Assembly: GCA_964489065.1 (NCBI GenBank)
Contig: CAZAXH010000001.1
Span: 374,358 to 438,357, forward strand
Origin: an uncultured Planctomycetales bacterium
Lineage (GTDB): Bacteria > Omnitrophota > Gorgyraeia > Zapsychrales > JANLHA01
Direction: 5' to 3'
Length of the DNA: 64,000 nt
In this document: positions 31,195 to 44,766 of the stretch, piece by piece
Layout of the letters: each line of letters opens with the position of its first letter
How positions within the stretch are numbered: position 1 is the first letter of the stretch
Position numbers and translations under genes: made by a program
The notes under the pieces: generated by a model
Databases searched by the model: none
The model's input: only the letters and a program-made list of their open reading frames with translations
Told to the model about the DNA's origin: nothing

Positions 31195-34100
31195 TCATGT
31201 GTCCGGGCAGGTTTTCCAAGAAGACGGGACTTCCAAACGATTCCGCCTTCGCTGCCGCCACCTCAGCCACAGAACAAACACCCCCCCTACAATCCAGGCT
31301 GAAGGCGCCGGGGTGTCAAAATCGTCTTCAAATTCCAGCCCCGCCGCGCTGGCCATTTTCTGCCGCTCCTTCATGCCCAACGTTTTCCATTGAGAACTGC
31401 GTTCAACCACGATATGGGACGTCGACGGGATCATGACCCCCCTGGCCTTGCTGTCCCGCACCAAAGCCGGGAGGGCCGACGACAGCCTAGCCGGATTTCT
31501 CATCATAAGGGCGTTGTTGACAAAAAGCCCCAGGGCCTCTGCGTAATCAGATTCGAAAGGAATGTTGAGAGATTGTAACGGCATAAATTTATCTTCCAAA
31601 GGAGCATAGACCTCATAAGCGGCATGCGGCGTTTGTCCCAAATTCGTGGCTAAGCGCCATTGCGGATCAGCAAAGACCGGAACCCAGGCAATATGCGGGC
31701 CATGCTTAACCACAATAATTTCCTTTGTGGCTGCCTCGTTAGCCGGGAAGCCGAGGGAGAAATTTTTTACCCCCGGATCCGGGCCCAAGACATAATACCG
31801 GGACTGCTCCGGAATCAAGCCCTGATAAAACGCCATTTCCTCCGGCCCTAAAAGATGGTCTTCCCGGTCTGTTATCACCACAAAAACAGGATACCATTGC
31901 CATGTGTTAGGAATCCCGGCCGTCAGCTTAGCCCGGTACATCAATAAAATGTGCTTCATGGCCCGGGTCAGGTCCAGACTTCCCCGGCGGGGGAGCCGGG
32001 CCTGTTGAATGACCTGCCGGATCAACGCTGTATCGCCCGGGATAATATAATCCGGGCTTAAAAGTTCAACTTCCAAATTAGCCGCGCTGACCTGAATCAA
32101 GTCCGCTCCGGGGAAAACAGCCCCCGCCTTAAGGATTCTCTCCAGGGCGGTGTCCGCGGTCAGCGTTGAACCGGCAGAGAAATCGAGGATAAAATGCAAA
32201 TAAGGTTTCCGCTGGAAAAACAAAGGGGAATAGGCGGGGTGGGTGAGAAGCATAGCATAATCCCCTCCGGGGCCGCTGCCTGTCAAGGCCATCGGCAGCC
32301 TGCCATTATGCACGGGTTCGTCCTGCAAAAAAATCGGGTACTGGCCGATCTTGATAACCGGGACCATCCCCCGGGGATAAGTCAACTCCAGCTCGGCAAG
32401 ACGGACTTCGTTGTGCCGAAAAGGAAAAATACTCATCTCTATGCGGGTCGGCGACGTATATACAAGCAGCCCCGGGTCGCGGCGCGTCCAGTCCCGAATC
32501 ATATGATAGACCCAGGTGGCGGTTTCCCTTTCGAACAACCGGCCCGGCACCATTTCCTTGTCCACCTGCAGGCGGAAACCCGTGATCAAGACCCCGGCGG
32601 GGATCTCGCATTCCTGAAAAAATTCGGCCGCATCATCCTCGCTGGTGTTTCTCATGGACAACTGCAATCTGGTTACAGTCGTAAATTCTTTCTCTTCACT
32701 GGTCCTCTTGAATGAAGACAATATCACCTCCCGGTTGCGCTGTATCTGACGGCGTTGTCCCCCGCCCCGGGAAGACCGGACACGGCCCCACCGGCCGGAG
32801 AACGAGGCGGACGCAGGCAACTCCGGCACAGATTCCCCCGTAAAAAGCCTGAACATATATTCAATCTTGTCGTCCGGCAAAACCATGCCGTTAAAAACCA
32901 CCTGATTATAAAAAGCGGAAATATACGGCAGCCGGGCACCGGCTTTCATCTTCTTCATTTTGATTAAAATTTCTTTTACCGTACGAACAGATCCTTTAAA
33001 ACGTTGTGGCCGTTCATAATCAGCGCAATACACATAATCCAATGCCCGCTGGATAGCACCCCGGTCCCTCCCCGCCTCCAGGATCAAATACCCCGGCAAT
33101 ATCAGGCAGGCAAGCAACACCAGGGTTGCCGCTTGTGTCCGCCCTGCCTGAAGCGACCATAACCGGACATCGTCCACAAGGATCTTCGTGTGAATTAAAA
33201 ATAGCATTAACGGAATCAGAAAAAGGAAACCCAGACCCATCGCGCAAATCGCCAAGAGGGATAAAGGCAAAAAGGGGAGAAAAACAAGAAAAAAATAAAC
33301 CGTAAAAGGATAGGTCGCGGCCCGGGAGAACACCAGCCAGCCCCGGCGCCGCATCCTCACAAGAGACGGGACAAGCAACACAAGCCCATTAAGGACCGCC
33401 AGGACATAAATTCCCCGAGCCTGGAAATCCGCCGGGAACGGGACATGATAATTCAGGAGCAACCCAGCCAAAGGGCCGACGACCGCCACCAGGGCGATCA
33501 CGGTGTTGTGGATCCACGGGTCTTTTTTTTGATACCAGCCGTAAAATAAAACGCTCAGCCGGATCAGGGCGATGAGTGTGACTAGCGTGATCCCGACGAA
33601 AAAAATAATCCCCACAACCGGCGGGAACCAGCCCCATGTCCACCGGACGCACGTCGACAATCCCAGCATGGCCGTGTACCATAAGGCTGGCGCAGCCACC
33701 GCGACCAGCAGACTGCGCCCGATATCCGCCCCCCGGTTCAGCCGGGTTTCGAAACACGCCAGCCGCATCGCCGCATAAAACAAACCCGGCATCATAAACG
33801 TATATTGCCACAGGATCACCTGCCCTTGATCCAAGGCCCAAGATTCTACCGCACCAGGTATAATATATGTGATCTCCGCTGTCGCAAACCACAAATAAGC
33901 GATATGAGACAAAAGAAAAACCCAATTCCATACCCAGGGGACCTCAAGGTATCCGCTCCGTTTCCAAGAAAAAAGCAGAGCTCCGCATAACACGATCAAC
34001 AATATTTCACTGCCCCCCAGCATCGCTGCCGCCGCCAGATTTTGAGGGAGGACTTCTTCCCGGATGATCCAAAAGGAAAAACAATTCAGCACAAACAATA

Positions 34101-34197
34101 TGCTCTGGGGAAGGATAAAAACCCAAAAGAGCATCATGATTTTCTTAAAAGGGCCTGGTAAAACAGATTCCCGGGCGTCATTGTTCATAAAAACCAA
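31195..34197 (-). CDS. Large (1000 aa) polytopic membrane protein with big extracytoplasmic C-terminal domain and PEP-CTERM-like C-terminal tail (MSEP-CTERM-like family candidate)
   Basis: The N-terminal ~400 aa contain >10 predicted TM helices, followed by a ~550-aa soluble region. The extreme C-terminus DTPAPSAWIVGGVFVLWLRWRQRRRNRL has a short Pro-containing motif, a TM helix and an Arg cluster, the architecture of exosortase sorting signals. Confidence 0.5.
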   Translation of the reverse strand: MVFMNNDARESVLPGPFKKIMMLFWVFILPQSILFVLNCFSFWIIREEVLPQNLAAAAMLGGSEILLIVLCGALLFSWKRSGYLEVPWVWNWVFLLSHIAYLWFATAEITYIIPGAVESWALDQGQVILWQYTFMMPGLFYAAMRLACFETRLNRGADIGRSLLVAVAAPALWYTAMLGLSTCVRWTWGWFPPVVGIIFFVGITLVTLIALIRLSVLFYGWYQKKDPWIHNTVIALVAVVGPLAGLLLNYHVPFPADFQARGIYVLAVLNGLVLLVPSLVRMRRRGWLVFSRAATYPFTVYFFLVFLPFLPLSLLAICAMGLGFLFLIPLMLFLIHTKILVDDVRLWSLQAGRTQAATLVLLACLILPGYLILEAGRDRGAIQRALDYVYCADYERPQRFKGSVRTVKEILIKMKKMKAGARLPYISAFYNQVVFNGMVLPDDKIEYMFRLFTGESVPELPASASFSGRWGRVRSSRGGGQRRQIQRNREVILSSFKRTSEEKEFTTVTRLQLSMRNTSEDDAAEFFQECEIPAGVLITGFRLQVDKEMVPGRLFERETATWVYHMIRDWTRRDPGLLVYTSPTRIEMSIFPFRHNEVRLAELELTYPRGMVPVIKIGQYPIFLQDEPVHNGRLPMALTGSGPGGDYAMLLTHPAYSPLFFQRKPYLHFILDFSAGSTLTADTALERILKAGAVFPGADLIQVSAANLEVELLSPDYIIPGDTALIRQVIQQARLPRRGSLDLTRAMKHILLMYRAKLTAGIPNTWQWYPVFVVITDREDHLLGPEEMAFYQGLIPEQSRYYVLGPDPGVKNFSLGFPANEAATKEIIVVKHGPHIAWVPVFADPQWRLATNLGQTPHAAYEVYAPLEDKFMPLQSLNIPFESDYAEALGLFVNNALMMRNPARLSSALPALVRDSKARGVMIPSTSHIVVERSSQWKTLGMKERQKMASAAGLEFEDDFDTPAPSAWIVGGVFVLWLRWRQRRRNRLEVPSSWKTCPDT

Positions 34198-35424: not shown

Positions 35425-36237
35425 TCAGGAGAAGAGACCCGAGGTCCAAAGCTCCAAGATAACGACCCCTGCCCCCACGCTGACCGCGGCCCAGGCGTGC
35501 CGCCAACGGACGTCCAGCCGAGGGTAAGCGCCCCTAAATAAACACCGGCTCAGCTCACCCGACAACCAGCCCCCCACGAGAGCCATCCCCAGAATCCCCG
35601 CCATAAAGATACAGTAACGCATCAGGCGCGAAAAATCATAAATGCTATTATAAACAACAATCCCTGCCAGATACGGGAACACTCCGCCGAGCAGGACTCC
35701 GGCTCGTCTTAGATGAGTCATGTCCGGAGAAAGTCCCGTCAAAGGGAGGGAACGCATAAACGCCCAACCTCCCGCGGCCAGACAATATATTCCCGCCGCA
35801 AAAAGTCCTTCCGCCGGGCAGCCCAGCGCAATCATCCGGCCCGGATCACCGAACCCTTTTAAAATGGAACTGCCCAAGACAAGATACAAGCCATTTCCAA
35901 CCAAGGAGGCAACCCCCGCCATCGCCAGCGGCAGCGCATAAGGACTCCGGCTTGTTTTCAAGGACGCCAAAAAGGCTGCGCCCCCCAGTATCCCCAGAAA
36001 GATACCCGCAACGGAAATTGCAAAATGCGGCGCCGTAACCGGAATATTGTATATCACCACCGACCTCGTAAACGGCTGCAATTGAATTTTCGTCACCTCT
36101 CCTCCGCACCCCAGGATAACCAGAACATGACCCGCTTCGTGCAAAGCGATCGCCGCGACGCATCCAAATGCCAAGGACCCGGCTAAATGCAACGCGAGTT
36201 TTAGACATTCCCGGAACTTATGCCGCACTCTCTTCAT
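35425..36237 (-). CDS. Polytopic membrane protein with HExxH (HEAGH) motif in a TM helix - putative site-2-protease-like (M50-like) metalloprotease
   Basis: Likely start MKRVRHKF (ATG ~36237); the track ORF 35425..36447 extends upstream through a low-complexity Arg/Gly-rich stretch and is probably over-called; HEAGH sits within the first TM helix. Confidence 0.5.
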   Translation of the reverse strand: MKRVRHKFRECLKLALHLAGSLAFGCVAAIALHEAGHVLVILGCGGEVTKIQLQPFTRSVVIYNIPVTAPHFAISVAGIFLGILGGAAFLASLKTSRSPYALPLAMAGVASLVGNGLYLVLGSSILKGFGDPGRMIALGCPAEGLFAAGIYCLAAGGWAFMRSLPLTGLSPDMTHLRRAGVLLGGVFPYLAGIVVYNSIYDFSRLMRYCIFMAGILGMALVGGWLSGELSRCLFRGAYPRLDVRWRHAWAAVSVGAGVVILELWTSGLFS

Positions 36238-36317
36238 TTCACCTTTGCCCCGAAGCCTTTGTGGGTACGGGCTCATCCGCACACTAAAAAAACCAGGCGG
36301 CCGCCTGTTGAAAAACA

Positions 36318-36527
36318 TTATGCCTCTTTGCGGATAAGCAACGTGTAGCTGACCAACCCTCCGGCTACCAAAACCGCCCCGGCAATAAAAGGCAAACTGG
36401 CGGCAGCGGTCAAAACCACCTGAGTGCCGGCGATAAACGGCACACACAACATCATACCGTAAGCGCCTGCCGCGACAGAAACCAAAGCAGCCGCTTTACA
36501 TAAACTTCGAATGGCTTCCGGTGTCAT
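36318..36527 (-). CDS. Small (69 aa) two-TM hydrophobic protein
   Basis: MTPEAIRSLCKAAALVSVAAGAYGMMLCVPFIAGTQVVLTAAASLPFIAGAVLVAGGLVSYTLLIRKEA; strong AGGAGGG RBS 6 nt upstream of the ATG; the track ORF (36318..36566) starts 13 codons further up. Confidence 0.45.
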   Translation of the reverse strand: MTPEAIRSLCKAAALVSVAAGAYGMMLCVPFIAGTQVVLTAAASLPFIAGAVLVAGGLVSYTLLIRKEA

Positions 36528-39592: not shown

Positions 39593-42500
39593 TTACAAAC
39601 AAATACCGCTCCAGTTCCCGCAGCTTGTGCAGGACTCTGTCCCGGGAATAATAAAATATTTCAGACAGGAGCGAGTCTGCCCAGGCGTACAGTCACTATA
39701 AGGAAGCTCACAGTTTCCGTCGAACGCTCCGGTGACATCGTTACAGTACACGACCCCGGACGTACAGCCGGACGTGGTCGTACAGGTTTTTGTCGATCCG
39801 CTGATACAAACACAGGTCTCGTAAAGGCCGCTGGAAGTATTACAAGTCTGTGTCCCCAAGACACCGTCAATATAACAATACACCACGCCGGGCAAACATC
39901 GGCAATCCTCATAATCATCCCCGCAGGAAACGCACTCCTCCACGCCCGGGTTCCCATCGCCCAAAGTACAGTCCCGGGTGCTGCCGGGCGCGCAGGTCGG
40001 GTTGCTCTGTTCACACGCCGTCCACCCTCCGCCGGAACAGGTCCCAATCCCCGGACAAGAAGACGATGTCGTGCAGCTTTGGGTTTCCTGCGGGTCACAC
40101 CAGCACAGACCCCAGCCCGTCCCGCAGGCATTACATGTTTTCTTGGAAATAAAGCCGTCGGCATTAGGCTCGCAATTCACAACTTCGCCCGGCGTACAGA
40201 CCGGATTGGCCTGCTGACAGGAACTCCAGGTTCCGCCCACGCACAGGCGATGATACGGGCAGCCTCCGACCGGAGGGCATTCCAATGTTTCTCCCGAAGA
40301 ACACGTCGTACACGAGGTGTTATACGAACACGTTTTCTGCACCGGGCAAGCGCTGTTGACAGGGGTGGTCACAATCAACCTCTTGTCATAAGTACAGGTC
40401 AACCCGTCATACGTTGCCCCGCAGCCCAAATCCTCGGTTGTGCCGGTTGTGTACCCGCAGCAAATTTCCGCATAATTCACTTGATTCACCTTGACGACCG
40501 GGCAGCTTTTCCCACCGCCGGGCTCTTTCACAGTGACGTAGTGAGTTGCCGGGACATTTAAAGGCGACCCATACCCGCAATAATAATTCGTCGTATACTC
40601 ACAGCACGTGTCGTGGTAAGGATAGGGATTCCGGGACCTGACCGGACATTCGGTCAGGACCGGTTCTTTAATTTCGACTCGAGTCGTTTCCGGATATCCT
40701 AAAGGTGCGTATCCGCACACCACCGTATAAGTCGCTGGGTAGCCGCAACAAGTGTTATCATTATGAATCTGGCTGATCACTTTAATCGGACAGTCCGCAT
40801 GAACAATCCCCGGCTCCTGCCAAGTCACGTAGTCCGTGACCGGGAACATCACCCCGTCCCCGCACCCCTGCTGCAGAGCCCCGTATTGACAGCACGTTTC
40901 ATCATAAGCCGGGACTCCGACAATCTGAACTTCGCAGGTGGGGTTCGTGGGCGACTCCAGATAAGACACCAAATACGTAACAGGATACCCCAAAGCCCCG
41001 CATTCCGTCGTAGGGGACGCCGGATAATCGCAACAGCTCTGGTGGTTTGTCTGTTCGGTCACTATCGGGTCACACCCGGTGGACGACGTCTGCGTCGTGA
41101 TCCAGGAACTCGTCGGGTACGTCACGCCGTCGCCGCATGCCGAAGTCGCGGCCCCATAAGCACAACATGTGTATTCATAAGGAACCACATTCTGAAACAG
41201 TGGATCACAGCCGGGTAACGCGTTCCCCGGCTCATTGACCTGCAATTGGGTATGATCCGGGTACCAGCCCGAGTACCCGCATTGGGACGCCTGAAACCCG
41301 CCGTAATTACAGCAGAATGGATCATTGGCGATTTCGTTCTGTACCACCGTCGGGCATTCCGCGAAATTCTGCGTCGGAGTCTGGACCTCGACCGAGGTTG
41401 TCTCGGGGCGGCCGTCATACCCGCAGAGTCGCGTGAATCCCCCATATCCGCAGCATCCGTCAGCCGTCGGACGGTCAACAATAACGTCACAGCTGGGGTT
41501 ATTCGGCGTCAATGTCTCAAACAGCGTTGTCACCGGATAGGTCACGCCGTCCCCGCAATGGGCACTGGTCACCTCGTAATCGCAGCAATAATCACACATT
41601 TCTTCCGTGCTCCCGTAGATGTCCGGGCAATTCGAATTACCCGGTTTCTTAGCGCCATAAATACATGTGGTTTCGGGATAAACAACGCCATCCCATGTGC
41701 CGCCGCACTGCACGCTCGGATCCGGATAATTGCAGCACACATCCTCATACGGACCGCACACATCCCCGAATATCGGGCTGCAGAGAGGATTGGTCGGTTC
41801 CCGGAAATCAACAAGATAAGTATCATCATAATATCCTGGATACCCGCATTGATCATACTGCCACGGGCCGTACCCGCAGCACGCCTCATTAAAAGGATCT
41901 TCCGTAATTTCCGTCGGACACGCCGGGTTGCAGCTCGGGGTAGAGGAAACAACCATACTGGAAGTCGGATAGGTCACGCCATCACCGCAGGCTGACGAGG
42001 AAGTGTAACAGCAGCAGCTGTCGGCGTTTTCAACATGATTCCGGTACTCGGTCGGGCACGCCGCATCGACCAACCCCGGGACATTATATTCGATCCAGTC
42101 CGTATCCGGATAAGACCCATACCCGCAACTGCCGATGAACCCGCTGTAGTAACAACAGTATTTGGTCGGGTCATCCTCAATATCGACTTGCTGGACAATC
42201 TTGTGGTCGCAATTCGAGTTCGCCGGGGTCCTGAACTGAAGAAAAGTAGTGGGCGGGAAGACGACCATTTCTCCGTTGACTTTTAAAGTCGCCCCGCAGC
42301 TCGGCGGAACTTCAATGTCTCCGTAATCACAGCAGTCATCCGCATTGGGCGTAATCGTGATATCCGCGGCGCAGTTGGTATTTCCCGCGCTGCGGTAGGT
42401 GATCAGGGTAGAATCCGGATAGACCACACCCTCGACTTCACCGCCGCAGGAACTGCTCTGCGGACCGTAATCACAGCAGTTCGCTTTTGAAACAGGGTCA

Positions 42501-43414
42501 TCCGCCGGATAAATCGTGCCAAACTCCGGCTCGCACGCCGGATTAGCCGGGATATTGACTTCCAGCCACTGGGTGTCAGGATAAAGGATGTCATAACCGC
42601 ACTGCCAGACCAAACCCGCATAATCACAGCAAGATTTAAGCTCCGCGCACTGGAAACGCTCCGGACAATCCTCGACGCCTGTCGCGGAACGCTGAATCTG
42701 CTGCATAGCGGTCGGATCGCACTCGCCTCCGCCGCAAAGATAATCCTCCCACGGGCCATAATTACAGCAGGCGTCGTAAGCGGTGACGCATTCGACCAGG
42801 TCCAGGCAGCCTTCTTCCGGGGCTGTCTTTGTCCTCATAATTTCGTTCGGTTCACAGGGCGACACGCCGCAGCCCATAATAACCCAATCCGTATAGGTGC
42901 AGGCCCCGCAGTCGACCGGGCAATTCGCCAAATCTTCATAAGGAGGATTGCATTCTCCATCCCCGCAGCAGCTAACCACTTCAAGGGACGTCCGCAACTC
43001 ATAAATATGGGACGCCTGAATCGCGGCATCCGCCGGGATATCCGTTTCCAGCACCACGTCTTCCGGAAGAGGCCGGGCCGGGGGCAGGTCGTAAATGTCC
43101 TTCAGCGTTTGGCGCAGTTCCTCAATATGCTGAGCCCGGATAGGGGTAACCTTGGAAATGAGGTTCGGGTTTTCCCAAACAGGAGCGGACATGCCGCACA
43201 GCATGCGTTTGTTATAAATAGCTCTCCTCAACTCCCGGATATGAATCGGTTTTACAGGCCGTTGCAAAGTCACCAGATCATCGTCTGTCCACGTCTGGGC
43301 CGACGCCTGTTGCAACCCCAACAGGCACACCGCCACGGCCACCATCGCGGTCACCGCAAAAAAACATCCCCCTCTTCCGCAGAAAAACCCGTCGTTCCTT
43401 GCCATATCCCCCAT
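39593..43414 (-). CDS. Giant secreted cysteine-rich tandem-repeat protein (1273 aa), novel, no recognisable family
   Basis: Signal peptide (…AVTAMVAVAVCLLGLQQASAQT); N-terminal region with three IxxxHIxELRxxL repeats. About 17 tandem ~45-50-aa modules follow, each starting CC-x-Y-G/S/P and containing four Cys (e.g. CCDYGPQSSSCGGEVEGVVYPDSTLITYRSAGNTNC, CCGYGGFTRLCGYDGRPETTSVEVQTPTQNFAEC). The C-terminal ~230 aa form a Cys/Thr/Gly-rich stalk with two duplicated C-x-G-x-C...NP-x-C-x-PG modules. There is no C-terminal anchor. A strong single frame is maintained across 3.8 kb of repetitive DNA. Confidence 0.8.
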   Translation of the reverse strand: MGDMARNDGFFCGRGGCFFAVTAMVAVAVCLLGLQQASAQTWTDDDLVTLQRPVKPIHIRELRRAIYNKRMLCGMSAPVWENPNLISKVTPIRAQHIEELRQTLKDIYDLPPARPLPEDVVLETDIPADAAIQASHIYELRTSLEVVSCCGDGECNPPYEDLANCPVDCGACTYTDWVIMGCGVSPCEPNEIMRTKTAPEEGCLDLVECVTAYDACCNYGPWEDYLCGGGECDPTAMQQIQRSATGVEDCPERFQCAELKSCCDYAGLVWQCGYDILYPDTQWLEVNIPANPACEPEFGTIYPADDPVSKANCCDYGPQSSSCGGEVEGVVYPDSTLITYRSAGNTNCAADITITPNADDCCDYGDIEVPPSCGATLKVNGEMVVFPPTTFLQFRTPANSNCDHKIVQQVDIEDDPTKYCCYYSGFIGSCGYGSYPDTDWIEYNVPGLVDAACPTEYRNHVENADSCCCYTSSSACGDGVTYPTSSMVVSSTPSCNPACPTEITEDPFNEACCGYGPWQYDQCGYPGYYDDTYLVDFREPTNPLCSPIFGDVCGPYEDVCCNYPDPSVQCGGTWDGVVYPETTCIYGAKKPGNSNCPDIYGSTEEMCDYCCDYEVTSAHCGDGVTYPVTTLFETLTPNNPSCDVIVDRPTADGCCGYGGFTRLCGYDGRPETTSVEVQTPTQNFAECPTVVQNEIANDPFCCNYGGFQASQCGYSGWYPDHTQLQVNEPGNALPGCDPLFQNVVPYEYTCCAYGAATSACGDGVTYPTSSWITTQTSSTGCDPIVTEQTNHQSCCDYPASPTTECGALGYPVTYLVSYLESPTNPTCEVQIVGVPAYDETCCQYGALQQGCGDGVMFPVTDYVTWQEPGIVHADCPIKVISQIHNDNTCCGYPATYTVVCGYAPLGYPETTRVEIKEPVLTECPVRSRNPYPYHDTCCEYTTNYYCGYGSPLNVPATHYVTVKEPGGGKSCPVVKVNQVNYAEICCGYTTGTTEDLGCGATYDGLTCTYDKRLIVTTPVNSACPVQKTCSYNTSCTTCSSGETLECPPVGGCPYHRLCVGGTWSSCQQANPVCTPGEVVNCEPNADGFISKKTCNACGTGWGLCWCDPQETQSCTTSSSCPGIGTCSGGGWTACEQSNPTCAPGSTRDCTLGDGNPGVEECVSCGDDYEDCRCLPGVVYCYIDGVLGTQTCNTSSGLYETCVCISGSTKTCTTTSGCTSGVVYCNDVTGAFDGNCELPYSDCTPGQTRSCLKYFIIPGTESCTSCGNWSGICL

Positions 43415-43429
43415 CTCCTTTTTGAAATA

Positions 43430-44290
43430 TTACGGCGCATACATCGCATAATATCCCGACGTGCTCGGGTCCCCGGTATCAATATACCGCAGTTTTATTT
43501 CCCCGACCGGGTCACTGCCGAGCTTAACTTCAATCGGCCCGTTAATGCGCAGCTTCCCGCTGGGCAGCAAAACAAGTTCCGTCGTGGCACCAACGGCGGT
43601 CCCGTAGTTAATCTTAAAATAATTATCCGCAGCATCAAGCCCCATCGTCACAAACGTCGTCCCCCGGGAAAACGTCACCTGGCTGTCCTGACCGGCGTCG
43701 ACCGTGATCTCCACTTTTCCCTTAACGACCAATTCATGGGTAGGATTGGTCATATTCACCCCCACGTTCCCCTGGGGCGTGATATGAATCCGGGTTGTAT
43801 TATTCGTATTAATTTGAAGAGACGTATTGCTGGAGGTTCCGATGGAGGAGTTCGTGGCCTGACTTCGCACAACATAAGCGCTGCCGCCCATCTGGTCGAC
43901 TTTAAAAGTAGCGTCGGCCCCCTGCGCTTCAACCTGCAGCAGGCTGTCAGGATTAATGGTCCCGATCCCGACTTTCAGGGAGCTGTAATTCGTCACATCC
44001 GTCAGGAAAACCGCGTCCCCATCCTGAGTCCACGCGGTCGGTAAAAGCCCGTACGTTGAATCGTTCCGGCAATACATTAAAAGACCTGTGGTTTCATCCA
44101 CGTACATGCTCCCGACATCACAGGCGCCGCTTATAGCGGCGCGAGGAACAAGGCGAAACTGGGAGTAGGAACCAAACGGCGCGGGATAATAGGTCGTTAA
44201 CGTCAACGTCCCCGCGCGAACAGGAGAAACGGAAAGCCCTAAAAACATGATCCCCGACAACAAGACAAAAAATTTCTTTTTCTGTTTCAT
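43430..44290 (-). CDS. Secreted beta-rich protein (287 aa) with tail-fibre-like repeats, co-transcribed with the giant Cys-repeat protein
   Basis: Likely start MKQKKKFFVLLSGIMFLGLSVSPVRAG (signal peptide) with a GAGGAG RBS; the track ORF 43430..44491 has a 67-codon upstream extension that is probably not translated. Ser/Thr/Gly/Asn-rich with repeated units of the form LKVGIGTINPDSLLQVEAQG and GNVGVNMTNPTHELVVKG, resembling beta-helical tail-fibre/collar motifs. Only 15 nt separate its stop from the giant gene start. Confidence 0.55.
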   Translation of the reverse strand: MKQKKKFFVLLSGIMFLGLSVSPVRAGTLTLTTYYPAPFGSYSQFRLVPRAAISGACDVGSMYVDETTGLLMYCRNDSTYGLLPTAWTQDGDAVFLTDVTNYSSLKVGIGTINPDSLLQVEAQGADATFKVDQMGGSAYVVRSQATNSSIGTSSNTSLQINTNNTTRIHITPQGNVGVNMTNPTHELVVKGKVEITVDAGQDSQVTFSRGTTFVTMGLDAADNYFKINYGTAVGATTELVLLPSGKLRINGPIEVKLGSDPVGEIKLRYIDTGDPSTSGYYAMYAP

Positions 44291-44766
44291 TCTGAGTCTC
44301 CTCACGGCAAGGCAAATAAGCTTGCCAGGCTTCTTTTCATCGCTGTTATAAAAAGTATACAATAATATTTTAATAAATGGCCACAATCTCCCGGTGCCCC
44401 CGGCAGCCCCAGACGCATTCTCCCGTCGGGGGAAATCCGCAGGAAACAGTAAAAGTCCGTGACCCCATCCGAGATAGACGGGAAAAGGCATGAAGAAAGC
44501 GCTTTCTCCCCGGATGCACGTCCCTCCTCTTTTGAAAAACAGCTCCCGGGAAAGTGGCTCAAAATAATTATATCCTCAGCCACGGGTTATTCTAGACATA
44601 ATTCATATTTTATCTTTTAAAACAGAAGGGCAGAACTTTAGCGAGGCCGTTTCTGCAGAAGCCGAATCAGGACATAAATCACCACCACAATCCCCACGGT
44701 GACAAACCCCGCGGCCATATCGGATAATCCCGGAAGGGTTTCTTCTCCCATAACGTTTTCCCTCTA

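Follow-up and report, generated by a model that had tools for sequence, protein, structure and literature searches.

The Omnitrophota, ultra-small and so far uncultured, are an abundant group of bacteria believed to live on other cells or at their expense; to our knowledge, their means of making contact has not been described, and annotation is lacking for most of the large proteins on their surface. The locus described here raises the question of what is built by the product of a gene for a long, exported, cysteine-rich repeat protein (the rod) together with that of the gene directly upstream of it, which encodes an exported, fibre-like protein (the partner). Both genes lie within the 64,000-nt stretch of DNA that was analysed, referred to below as the window.

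Two coupled genes

The initial annotation had placed the partner gene 15 nt upstream of the rod gene, and re-measurement of the gap gave the same distance (Table 1). The partner, annotated there as 287 aa, was shortened to 286 aa: its open reading frame spans 43430..44491 (minus strand), and homologues place the start at 44290, backed by 286-aa orthologues and a GGAG ribosome-binding site. A consensus scan hinted at a candidate sigma-70-type promoter in the ~370 nt of intergenic DNA that precede the partner gene. The rod reading frame runs uninterrupted over 1,273 aa, and comparison with three orthologues gave dN/dS values of 0.06–0.11 for the rod and 0.08–0.13 for the partner; together with the invariance of the rod's core cysteines, this bears out the original view of a single unbroken frame and a real gene. 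Two other descriptions were too strong: the DNA, called GC-rich, is only mildly enriched (0.55 vs about 0.51 for the window), and "giant" overstates a protein that is large, but not exceptionally so by Omnitrophota standards.

Table 1 Features of the rod–partner cassette (window coordinates).
Feature	Position	Strand	Description and basis
Candidate sigma-70-type promoter	44354..44383	−	TGGCCA-18-TATACT; consensus scan, 9/12 matches
Partner gene	43430..44290	−	286-aa exported, short, non-S74 MAT-like (tail-fibre-like) protein
Partner signal peptide	44213..44290	−	Residues 1–26, predicted cleavage VRA|G; sequence reading, same layout in all orthologues
Partner N-terminal domain	43976..44212	−	Residues ~27–105, TLTTYYPAPFGxY..RLVPR, two invariant Cys, invariant Trp; invariant columns
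Partner shaft repeats	43691..43975	−	Residues ~106–200, ...G.VGIGT..P...L.V.G...; aligned to Bdellovibrio MAT fibre-fragment repeats and PHROG tail-fibre families
Partner-specific C-terminal domain	43433..43690	−	Residues ~201–286, ending ...GE[IV]K[LV].Y[IV]..GYYA.YAP; full-length alignment
Intergenic spacer	43415..43429	−	15 nt, AAGGAG ribosome-binding site
Rod gene	39593..43414	−	1,273-aa exported cysteine-rich modular protein, 126 Cys
Rod signal peptide	43298..43414	−	Residues 1–39, predicted cleavage ASA|Q after h-region; sequence reading
Rod N-terminal three-repeat helical domain	42971..43297	−	Residues 40–148, 3 x [W/F]TD..L..G.T.I.A.HI.ELR.AI
CCGDGxC..E...CPxDC motif and module 1	42770..42970	−	Single-Cys start, CxYxxW..GCG..C....Q/R.K/RT.P..GC....C
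17 tandem CC modules	40325..42769	−	Residues 216–1030; three beta-strands each, CC pair on one-turn helix at module junction
Rod C-terminal Cys/Thr/Gly-rich region	39596..40324	−	Residues 1031–1273; invariant Cys, Gly, Trp columns

A partner gene with the motif TYYPAP[FY]G lies directly upstream of a gene for CC modules (repeat units opening with a vicinal cysteine pair) in 14 loci, namely the window and L001–L010, L012, L013 and L014, so that the two-gene unit proposed from the sequence is genuine. The coupling is kept down to 28% identity and across at least four unrelated genomic contexts; in L011, where the paralogues carry no CC modules, the partner motif is absent. Rod orthologues are 28–93% identical, and partner orthologues 32–77% where measured (97% in L007). 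Rod and partner diverge at similar rates, with respective identities of 77% and 77%, 41% and 37%, and 28% and 32% in three comparisons. The two genes are strictly coupled, real and under constraint.

The flanks of the cassette encode NrdR, a CCA-adding enzyme, SHMT, purine biosynthesis and GntR-ABC proteins. The GntR-ABC genes (named by the Pfam families of their L001 orthologues) and the genes for PrsW and M50B-like proteins are indeed found downstream in the window, as had been noted, but their assignment to the same system failed: L002, L004, L005, L006, L012, L013 and L014 hold the cassette in quite different neighbourhoods, and because these genes are not syntenic with it in the distant loci, we rejected them as parts of the system.

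An exhaustive search with a trimmed rod profile returned 3,312 matches; with modules looked for in the best 150 of these, the rod family comprised about a dozen representatives among 1.8 billion. Every rod-family locus with assignable taxonomy belongs to Omnitrophota. A word-index homology search with a single-module profile, a method ill-suited to so short a module, gave no match among 26 candidates, and we found no earlier description of the family in the literature on Omnitrophota giant proteins, MAT fibres or cysteine-rich repeats.

Architecture of the rod

The rod consists, in order, of a signal peptide, a three-helix domain, the CCGDGxC motif, 17 CC modules and a tail of eight-Cys repeats. 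Signal peptides, read from the sequence by eye, are present in all orthologues of both genes, those of the rod orthologues being equivalent and preceding the conserved WTD motif. The rod had been described as lacking an anchor; likewise, we saw no anchor motif at its C-terminus and no anchor or sorting motif in its sequence. The best conserved parts are the N-terminal domain, the CGDG motif, modules 1–2 and the first C-terminal sub-modules, and the most variable are the central part of the array and the final ~100 aa, the latter being least conserved.

The N-terminal ~110 aa form a separate domain, which the exhaustive search located in more than 3,000 cluster representatives, placed N- or C-terminally on diverse extracellular proteins. 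It was matched by no Pfam or NCBIfam model, and the cluster names of the proteins that carry it were uninformative. The domain also occurs on proteins in other contexts without such a partner, so its ligand may be something general and not the partner. The CCGDGxC motif-plus-module unit recurs in the cysteine-rich proteins P0068–P0070 and in Ca. Zapsychrus paralogues, where the same base carries different cysteine-rich cargo.

We then located the vicinal cysteines, which occupy 18 positions, 44–67 aa apart. The first pair (residue 149) belongs to the CCGDGEC motif and is followed by a single-Cys version of the module, whereas the other 17 (residues 216–985) open CC-x-Y ... C-G ... [Y/C]-P-x-T ... 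C-P units of 44–59 aa, in agreement with the ~17 modules counted at first. Twelve of the 17 contain four cysteines, four contain six and one contains five. Identity among them averages 30% (maximum 49%), and TRF detected no DNA-level tandem repeat in the array, which is therefore old, as the initial annotation had held. Using non-overlapping three-module tiles as the repeat alignment, AlphaFold modelled residues 651–795 (three modules) as regular beta-beta-beta-helix units (pLDDT 95, pTM 0.69).

Searches of Pfam, NCBIfam, PHROGs, PDB sequences and PDB folds revealed no significant match to the CC module, nor any recurrent Pfam family, and membership among the TSR, Sushi, EGF, SLH or chlamydial OMP families was rejected for want of profile support. 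The CC module is a new domain, and the assertion that it belongs to no known family stood.

The C-terminal region (~240 aa) was first read as a stalk with a duplicated sub-module. The repeats are present, but they form an array of about 3–4 copies of a ~60–70-aa eight-Cys sub-module (C..GCPG..TC..G.W..C....C.PG....C...C..CG..W..C.C), and not simply a stalk. A repeat related to this sub-module occurs in the otherwise unrelated protein P0148 (E 4e-16).

The partner is a relative of MAT fibres

The signal peptide of the partner is followed by a conserved ~80–95-aa domain (two Cys, one Trp) common to many Omnitrophota fibre proteins, and it is this domain that the partner has in common with Omnitrophota proteins carrying PF13884 (S74) or PF05658 (YadA head). 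A profile of 12 partner orthologues and relatives, searched against the PDB, matched fragments of the Bdellovibrio MAT fibres Bd2133 (8ond, E 4.4e-17, with three repeats covered), Bd1334 (8oml, 3.5e-11), Bd3182 (8ojn, 1e-9) and Bd2439 (8ol4, 1.7e-7); its shaft units are thus homologous to solved MAT fibres. PHROG tail-fibre families also matched (E 1e-7 and 1e-5), and the earlier description of a tail-fibre-like protein was borne out on both counts. Other fibre relatives align to the partner mostly over its N-terminal ~120–200 residues, and one of them ends in what reads as a tail-collar-like domain; the C-terminal domain aligns over full length in the cassette orthologues and a few other matches.

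A Pfam scan found no PF13884 in the partner, which has its own conserved C-terminal domain instead, and on these grounds we class it as NS74-type, that is, with the alternative to the S74 tip found in MAT proteins. It is clearly related to the Bdellovibrio MAT fibres (E down to 4e-17) and to Omnitrophota S74-type tail-fibre-like proteins, so that "no recognisable family", as first stated for the locus, holds for the CC module and not for the partner.

A proposed contact appendage

We consider it somewhat better than an even chance (about 0.55) that the cassette is a conserved two-gene Omnitrophota unit for an extracellular or cell-surface appendage, in which a disulfide-stapled rod and a fibre serve contact or adhesion; the cassette probably represents a new type of appendage for contact at the cell surface. 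The rod would be exported by the Sec pathway and fold in the oxidising periplasm into a long rod, with a pseudo-threefold three-helix domain and then the CGDG motif at its base, and a shaft of 17 three-stranded modules, each with two or three disulfides. A vicinal CC pair would mark each module junction, and the far end would be a variable eight-Cys knob. The partner would contribute its conserved N-terminal presentation domain after the signal peptide, a few VGIGT shaft repeats and its C-terminal domain. The rod may dock by its conserved base onto the partner fibre, or beside the partner on the envelope, so that its variable distal end would project tens of nanometres from the cell and contact other cells (host or prey) or surfaces.

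LptD is present in the window, indicating a diderm envelope; no means of crossing the outer membrane was recognised among the genes of the window. We infer export beyond the periplasm, interaction of rod and partner, trimerisation of the partner, the rod length and, by analogy, the adhesive or contact role. Published proposals hold that Omnitrophota depend on hosts or are predators, and that large proteins serve them in adhesion (PMC10066038; bioRxiv 10.1101/2023.11.21.568195).

More tentatively, the appendage might be built of two specific components: a short trimeric MAT-type fibre serving as a surface socket, and a monomeric rod that plugs into it via the three-helix base, with the fast-evolving eight-Cys knob recognising host or prey. 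The rod would then be, as a rough estimate, some 50 nm long, and the CC pairs at the junctions would possibly cross-brace neighbouring modules; the CC module would represent an extracellular fold not known before, and the base a new surface-docking domain of very wide distribution.

Alternative readings

Rod and fibre could instead form a static, S-layer-like coat cross-linked by disulfides, analogous to the cysteine-rich outer-membrane complex of Chlamydiae. We regard this as rather unlikely: no Pfam match to SLH or chlamydial OMP families was obtained, the partner comes from a fibre family used for recognising other cells, and the distal end of the rod is variable, as in adhesins. The rarity of the family points the same way, the number of representatives recovered by the exhaustive search being far below that of Omnitrophota species.

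The initial annotation had also suggested metal binding, and a metal- or sulfide-binding rod (metallothionein-like, an Fe/Zn/Cu store or detoxifier) would use its cysteines, ~10% of its residues, as ligands. Many Omnitrophota are anaerobes, often of anoxic habitats, where disulfides are harder to maintain, and a MopE-type putative metal-binding motif occurs in P0148, whose relationship to the rod is confined to the C-terminal repeat; neither MopE nor any other metal-binding Pfam model, however, matched the window rod. We therefore followed the cysteines across 122 modules from nine homologues. The four core columns are invariant in 121–122 of the 122, and the optional cysteines appear and disappear in strict pairs: two optional columns are both filled in 48 modules and both empty in 72, with each filled alone in a single module, and a third optional pair co-occurs likewise. 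The cysteine count is even in 115 of the 122 modules. This covariation is disulfide-like and tells against the metal-binding role. Furthermore, the modules hold four or six cysteines with beta-strands between them, rather than the CxC/CxxC clusters and scant regular secondary structure of metallothioneins and metal-cluster proteins, and AlphaFold predicts their fold at pLDDT 95 without ligand. The mature rod of this genome has an odd number of cysteines (123), at least one of which is consequently unpaired. A DsbA-family gene lies 3–4 kb from the cassette in the related loci L005, L012 and L013, the only ones in which it was seen. Taken together, metal binding appears improbable, and the disulfide-stapled appendage remains our preferred reading.

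A remnant prophage or tailocin receptor-binding module (tail fibre plus accessory protein) is still harder to sustain. The partner has PHROG tail-fibre matches and relatives with S74 intramolecular-chaperone domains, typical of phage fibres; against this, the rod regions have no PHROG match, no other phage genes are nearby, and vertical conservation of the cassette, with housekeeping flanks in synteny, is seen in several genomes. Each protein also starts with a Sec signal peptide, a feature normally absent from phage virion fibres. We rejected a prophage origin on genomic context.

Least credible of all is that the rod is a radical-SAM-modified, ranthipeptide/SCIFF-like product matured by a B12-binding radical SAM enzyme. 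The gene for such an enzyme, of 480–494 aa, directly follows the cassette in L002 and L003 and lies ~5 kb beyond it in L001. We dismissed this link on gene distribution, since no radical SAM gene lies in the window from the cassette to the PrsW gene, or near the cassette in L004, L005, L006, L012, L013 and L014. The rod also differs from leader-peptide substrates in its Sec signal peptide and its folded beta-modules.

Comparison with known systems

In architecture, the CC module resembles TSP type-1 repeats, Sushi and other small disulfide-stapled modules in its size (~45–60 aa), its 4–6 cysteines, its small beta-sheet core, a conserved aromatic residue or Trp near its start (ancestral CxYxxW...CG..C....Q.R) and a head-to-tail repetition that yields rod-like proteins outside the cell. 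The combination of TSP_1 profile, WxxW/CSxxCG motif and three-stranded TSR fold that marks TSP type-1 repeats was not found in it. The N-terminal domain, with three tandem repeats of one helix each in a pseudo-threefold bundle, has structural analogues in SLH trimers and Beclin BARA; the SLH profile and the TRAE-type motif were not found in it. Other bacterial cysteine-rich repeat proteins, P0068–P0070 and four tandem paralogues of Ca. Zapsychrus exili (L011), have the same three-repeat helical domain and CCGDGxC..E..CPxDC motif; the ancestral six-Cys module is common to the rod and P0068–P0070. Their cargo, unlike the rod's, consists of other repeats (CGNG..D.GE.CDG-type) with no long CC-module array, and L011 has no TYYPAP partner gene.

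Two unannotated domain families emerge: one is the rare rod module of four or six cysteines, which matches no solved PDB fold, the other the three-helix terminal domain carried by thousands of extracellular proteins. Being small, confidently modelled and predicted to be disulfide-stapled, the CC module is a tractable structural target, and it might offer a rigid, modular scaffold.

We know of no experimentally characterised prey-recognition fibre system of a predatory bacterium other than the MAT proteins of Bdellovibrio. The accessible text of PMC10769870 describes the MAT (mosaic adhesive trimer) fibres of Bdellovibrio bacteriovorus as surface-displayed and active in prey recognition. The partner resembles them in layout, with a signal peptide, a conserved N-terminal domain, G.VGIGT..P...L.V shaft units and a variable C-terminal tip in turn, and the shaft repeats share sequence homology with solved MAT fragments (E 4e-17 to 1e-4); a trimeric, surface-displayed state of the partner is a prediction. 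In MAT proteins, a beta-rich N-terminal domain of ~130 aa, conserved throughout the family, comes directly after the signal peptide; the conserved domain in this place in the partner measures ~80–95 aa. As in the Bdellovibrio set, its Omnitrophota relatives split into S74 and non-S74 types, and members of both groups are small and believed to need contact with other cells. The partner differs in length, at 286 aa against 626–627 aa for the shortest MAT proteins named in the accessible text of PMC10769870, which mentions no cysteine-rich rod gene coupled to a MAT gene. On our analysis, the kind of system would be a known one, its domain new and its function a prediction. The cassette ties Omnitrophota to the prey-recognition fibres of Bdellovibrio by real sequence homology, and adds to the MAT-type fibre a partner component not described before.

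Organisation and conservation of the two-gene cassette

The gene for the rod, an exported Cys-rich protein with 17 CC modules, follows that for its 286-aa exported fibre partner after 15 nt, and is preceded by an AAGGAG ribosome-binding site. We set the partner start at 44290 according to its 286-aa homologues, which begin with MKQKKK or MKHKRK; the ~370-nt intergenic region further upstream holds a weak promoter-like site. Inspection of the sequences revealed a typical Sec signal peptide on each protein, with cleavage between ASA and Q after residue 39 of the rod, and between VRA and G after residue 26 of the partner. Local GC content is 0.55, versus ~0.51 window-wide. The ORFs that overlap the cassette genes (see the table), either antisense to them or in alternative frames of their own strand, are most likely by-products of coding-strand composition bias rather than genes.

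The window as a whole encodes core housekeeping functions (purine biosynthesis, DnaK/DnaJ, ClpB, LptD, NrdR, MnmE), and because LptD is present, the host is diderm. All genuine-looking ORFs of at least 250 aa are encoded on the minus strand, and the GC skew stays negative from end to end (cumulative −4.8), so the stretch is consistent with a single replichore with strong gene co-orientation.

Coordinates of the cassette, its domains and neighbouring features
Feature	Locus	Position	Strand	Description
Rod gene	window	39593..43414	-	uninterrupted ORF, 1,273 aa
Partner ORF	window	43430..44491	-	directly upstream of rod gene
N-terminal three-repeat domain	window	42971-43297 (rod residues 40-148)	-	three ~35-aa repeats, [W/F]TD..L..G.T.I.A.HI.ELR.AI
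Eight-Cys sub-module	window	rod residues 1031-1273		~3-4 copies of ~60-70 aa, C..GCPG..TC..G.W..C....C.PG....C...C..CG..W..C.C
Long ORF overlapping both cassette genes	window	43007-44044	+
Several ORFs overlapping rod gene	window	39661-42759	both	83-249 aa
M50B-like peptidase gene	window	35425-36447		340 aa
VIT-match gene	window	31195-34197	-	1,000 aa
ECF sigma-70, zf-HC2 anti-sigma gene, two small ORFs	L001	13901-15882		between rod gene and GntR-ABC
B12-binding radical SAM gene	L002	14010-15494
B12-binding radical SAM gene	L003	6262-7746
B12-binding radical SAM gene	L001	18826-20268
DsbA-family thioredoxin-fold gene	L005	11097-11960		3-4 kb from cassette
DsbA-family thioredoxin-fold gene	L012	13441-14316		3-4 kb from cassette
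DsbA-family thioredoxin-fold gene	L013	516-1373		3-4 kb from cassette
P0061, second shorter CC protein	L006 (= L015 4001-6184)	6572-8755		727 aa, immediately upstream of partner gene
Four tandem paralogues	L011, Candidatus Zapsychrus exili JAVCCJ010000113.1	7683-15230	+	474-627 aa

A word-index search of 5.8 billion proteins identified six rod homologues, and an exhaustive search added a few module-bearing proteins (P0061-P0067), giving a CC-module family of about a dozen 50%-identity representatives. All taxonomically labelled rod loci belong to Candidatus Omnitrophota, including the 3.36-Mb chromosome OY759724 and a metagenome-assembled genome with 93% identity. Directly upstream of the CC-module gene, a partner orthologue was present at every such locus (the window, L001-L010, L012, L013 and L014). 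These orthologues (283-333 aa) carry TYYPAP[FY]G close to their N-terminal end and ...GYYA.YAP at the C-terminus, with full-length identities of 32-77% where measured (97% in L007). Rod and partner diverge at similar rates, and dN/dS values of 0.06-0.13 for both genes point to strong purifying selection; the cassette is a conserved, constrained two-gene unit.

On the L006 contig, one partner gene is flanked by two rod genes, encoding P0061 and the 1,342-aa P0006. The rod gene of L004 (ERZ25039459 contig_38025) is broken into ORFs of 517 and 787 aa, and the breaks extend to several housekeeping genes there (SHMT, NrdR, CCA-adding enzyme); these look like indel errors of long-read assembly, not pseudogenes.

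The CC module is a new domain

The rod contains 126 Cys (9.9%), with Thr, Gly and Pro also abundant, and 18 CC dipeptides spaced 44-67 residues apart. The first CC (residue 149) starts the motif CCGDGECNPPYEDLANCPVDC, after which comes a single-Cys version of the module (CTYTDWVIMGCGVSPCEPNEIMRTKTAPEEGCLDLVEC), and each of the other 17 pairs, between residues 216 and 985, starts a repeat unit. This 17-fold repeat, the uninterrupted frame and the partner 15 nt away are as the initial annotation had described them from the sequence.

We aligned 112-122 modules of the window rod and its homologues and obtained the consensus CC.Y..(W)..CG...[Y/C]P.TT.V.V..P.N..CP..., with four Cys columns invariant in 121-122 of 122 modules. 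Another two Cys columns are optional, one substituting for the Tyr of 'YP' and one lying ~10 residues past the fourth Cys. Both are occupied in 48 modules and neither in 72, each occurring alone in a single module; a third optional pair (seven modules) follows the same co-occurrence pattern, and 115 of the 122 modules hold 4 or 6 Cys. Since optional Cys are gained and lost in pairs, the module Cys covary like disulfide partners, unlike metal-ligand sets.

We modelled the array with AlphaFold using in-register, non-overlapping three-module tiles and a 26-sequence alignment. The model of rod residues 651-795 (mean pLDDT 95, pTM 0.69) places three beta-strands in each unit, and the CC pair on a one-turn helix at the junction to the next; the modules are thus confidently predicted to be regular small beta-modules. 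A metal-binding protein is disfavoured both by this predicted fold and by the pairwise gain and loss of Cys. No Pfam, NCBIfam or PHROGs model matched anywhere on the rod, and when 36 three-module tiles were scanned against Pfam at E <= 10, the matches were scattered and non-recurrent, none in more than four members. The view that the CC module is an unassigned domain was upheld in every test run, and the rod is built from a new domain.

The modules of the window rod share a mean identity of 30% (maximum 49%), TRF found no tandem repeat in the DNA of the rod gene, and about half of the modules match best to the same-index module of P0003, a 41%-identical orthologue. The array in this lineage is therefore old, as initially proposed. 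The arrays of the homologues P0005 and P0006 are more homogenised, with maximum inter-module identities of 77-81%.

The rod base (N-terminal domain, CGDG motif and modules 1-2) is the most conserved part, at 38-53% identity to distant orthologues, and the first C-terminal sub-modules are also among the best conserved; the mid-array and last 100 aa are least conserved (13-29%). No sorting or anchor motif was conserved at the C-terminus of the orthologues compared.

The N-terminal domain is shared with other extracellular proteins

We ran the trimmed family profile through HMMER against 1.84 billion representatives in an exhaustive search, and 3,312 cluster representatives matched at E <= 0.001. 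Among the best 150, nearly all matched profile positions ~2-112, and the domain mostly occupied the very C- or N-terminal end of extracellular proteins, among them LRR, subtilase and Ig-like architectures. No Pfam model matched this stretch in these proteins (P0071-P0205), and neither an NCBIfam model nor a PDB relative was found for the ~105-aa domain. We regard it as a separate, widespread, unannotated module and putative terminal docking or anchoring domain, which merits its own family definition; in this respect the initial annotation needs correcting.

The four paralogues of L011 have a signal peptide, a shortened N-terminal domain, a CCGDGTC..EN..NC..DC motif and different Cys-rich repeats as cargo (CGDG..E.CD.G..NG type). 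They form a mosaic family with the rod's base and without its modules; no partner gene was found in L011.

The partner is a MAT-like fibre

We searched the PDB with a profile of twelve partner orthologues and relatives. The profile matched Bd2133 (8ond; E 4.4e-17, three repeat units aligned), Bd1334 (8oml; E 3.5e-11), Bd3182 (8ojn; E 1e-9) and Bd2439 (8ol4; E 1.7e-7), the other matches being two marginal ones to myelin regulatory factor (E 0.08, 0.47). PMC10769870 describes these four Bdellovibrio bacteriovorus proteins as mosaic adhesive trimers (MAT), surface-displayed fibres for prey recognition with a signal peptide, conserved N-terminal domain, beta-prism shaft and variable tips, either terminated by S74 or lacking it. 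The central region of the partner also matches PHROG tail-fibre families (E 1e-7 and 1e-5). The housekeeping gene context and the signal peptides on both proteins argue against a prophage remnant.

The first ~120 residues of the partner are common to many Omnitrophota proteins with S74 (PF13884) or YadA-head (PF05658) domains, and one relative carries, by sequence reading, a tail-collar-like domain at its C-terminal end. Over the last ~85 residues, the cassette orthologues align in full, as do a few other matches. Because of the PDB and PHROG fibre matches and the S74/YadA-head relatives, we assign the partner as a short, non-S74, MAT-like fibre, a membership that rests on shaft/central homology. 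The initial description of 'no recognisable family' does not hold for this protein.

Neighbouring genes vary between loci

Cassette flanks vary widely: NrdR, CCA-adding enzyme, NUDIX, then GntR-ABC in the window, L001 and L004; aconitase and ApbE in L002; pyrR, ATCase, glmS, L27 and DsbA in L005, L012 and L013; comEC and leuS in L014. The downstream GntR-ABC, M50B-like and PrsW genes are syntenic in close relatives only; the regulator, ABC and protease genes, which the initial annotation had drawn into the system, lie outside it. The L001 chromosome is 76% identical, and its ECF sigma-70/zf-HC2 insertion is absent from the window.

The B12-binding radical SAM gene (480-494 aa) adjoins the cassette only in L002 and L003; in L001 it is found ~5 kb downstream, and the equivalent place in the window is taken by the M50B-like peptidase gene. 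This association is patchy, and such a distribution disfavours radical SAM maturation of the rod. The loci with a nearby DsbA-family gene are distantly related and have a common pyrR/ATCase ... TP_methylase/glmS/L27 synteny; the gene may have a part in the rod's oxidative folding, or its position may reflect clade synteny and nothing more.

The 1,000-aa protein, whose sole match is a weak VIT-domain hit (E 2e-5), is encoded after the gene for the PrsW protease and an ORF of 147 aa. L001, L007 and L008 also have ORFs of comparable length downstream of their cassettes. We count it as a further large unannotated protein, probably associated with the envelope.

Proposed role

The rod would be oxidised in the periplasm, with DsbA-family genes 3-4 kb away in L005, L012 and L013, and would then be exported across the outer membrane. 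Its base would hold it at the surface, either on the putative partner trimer or jointly with it, and its variable distal knob could then contact other cells or surfaces. The main rival is a static, disulfide-cross-linked component of the envelope. For the surface-contact reading, the partner is, by profile comparison, homologous to cell-surface recognition fibres. The rod family has no description in PMC10066038, bioRxiv 10.1101/2023.11.21.568195 or the other literature searched. Large extracellular proteins for host or prey adhesion have been proposed in Omnitrophota (PMC10066038; bioRxiv 10.1101/2023.11.21.568195), and the surface-contact reading fits these proposals. We infer that the cassette functions as a bacterial surface fibre/adhesin system, of a known kind but built from a new domain.
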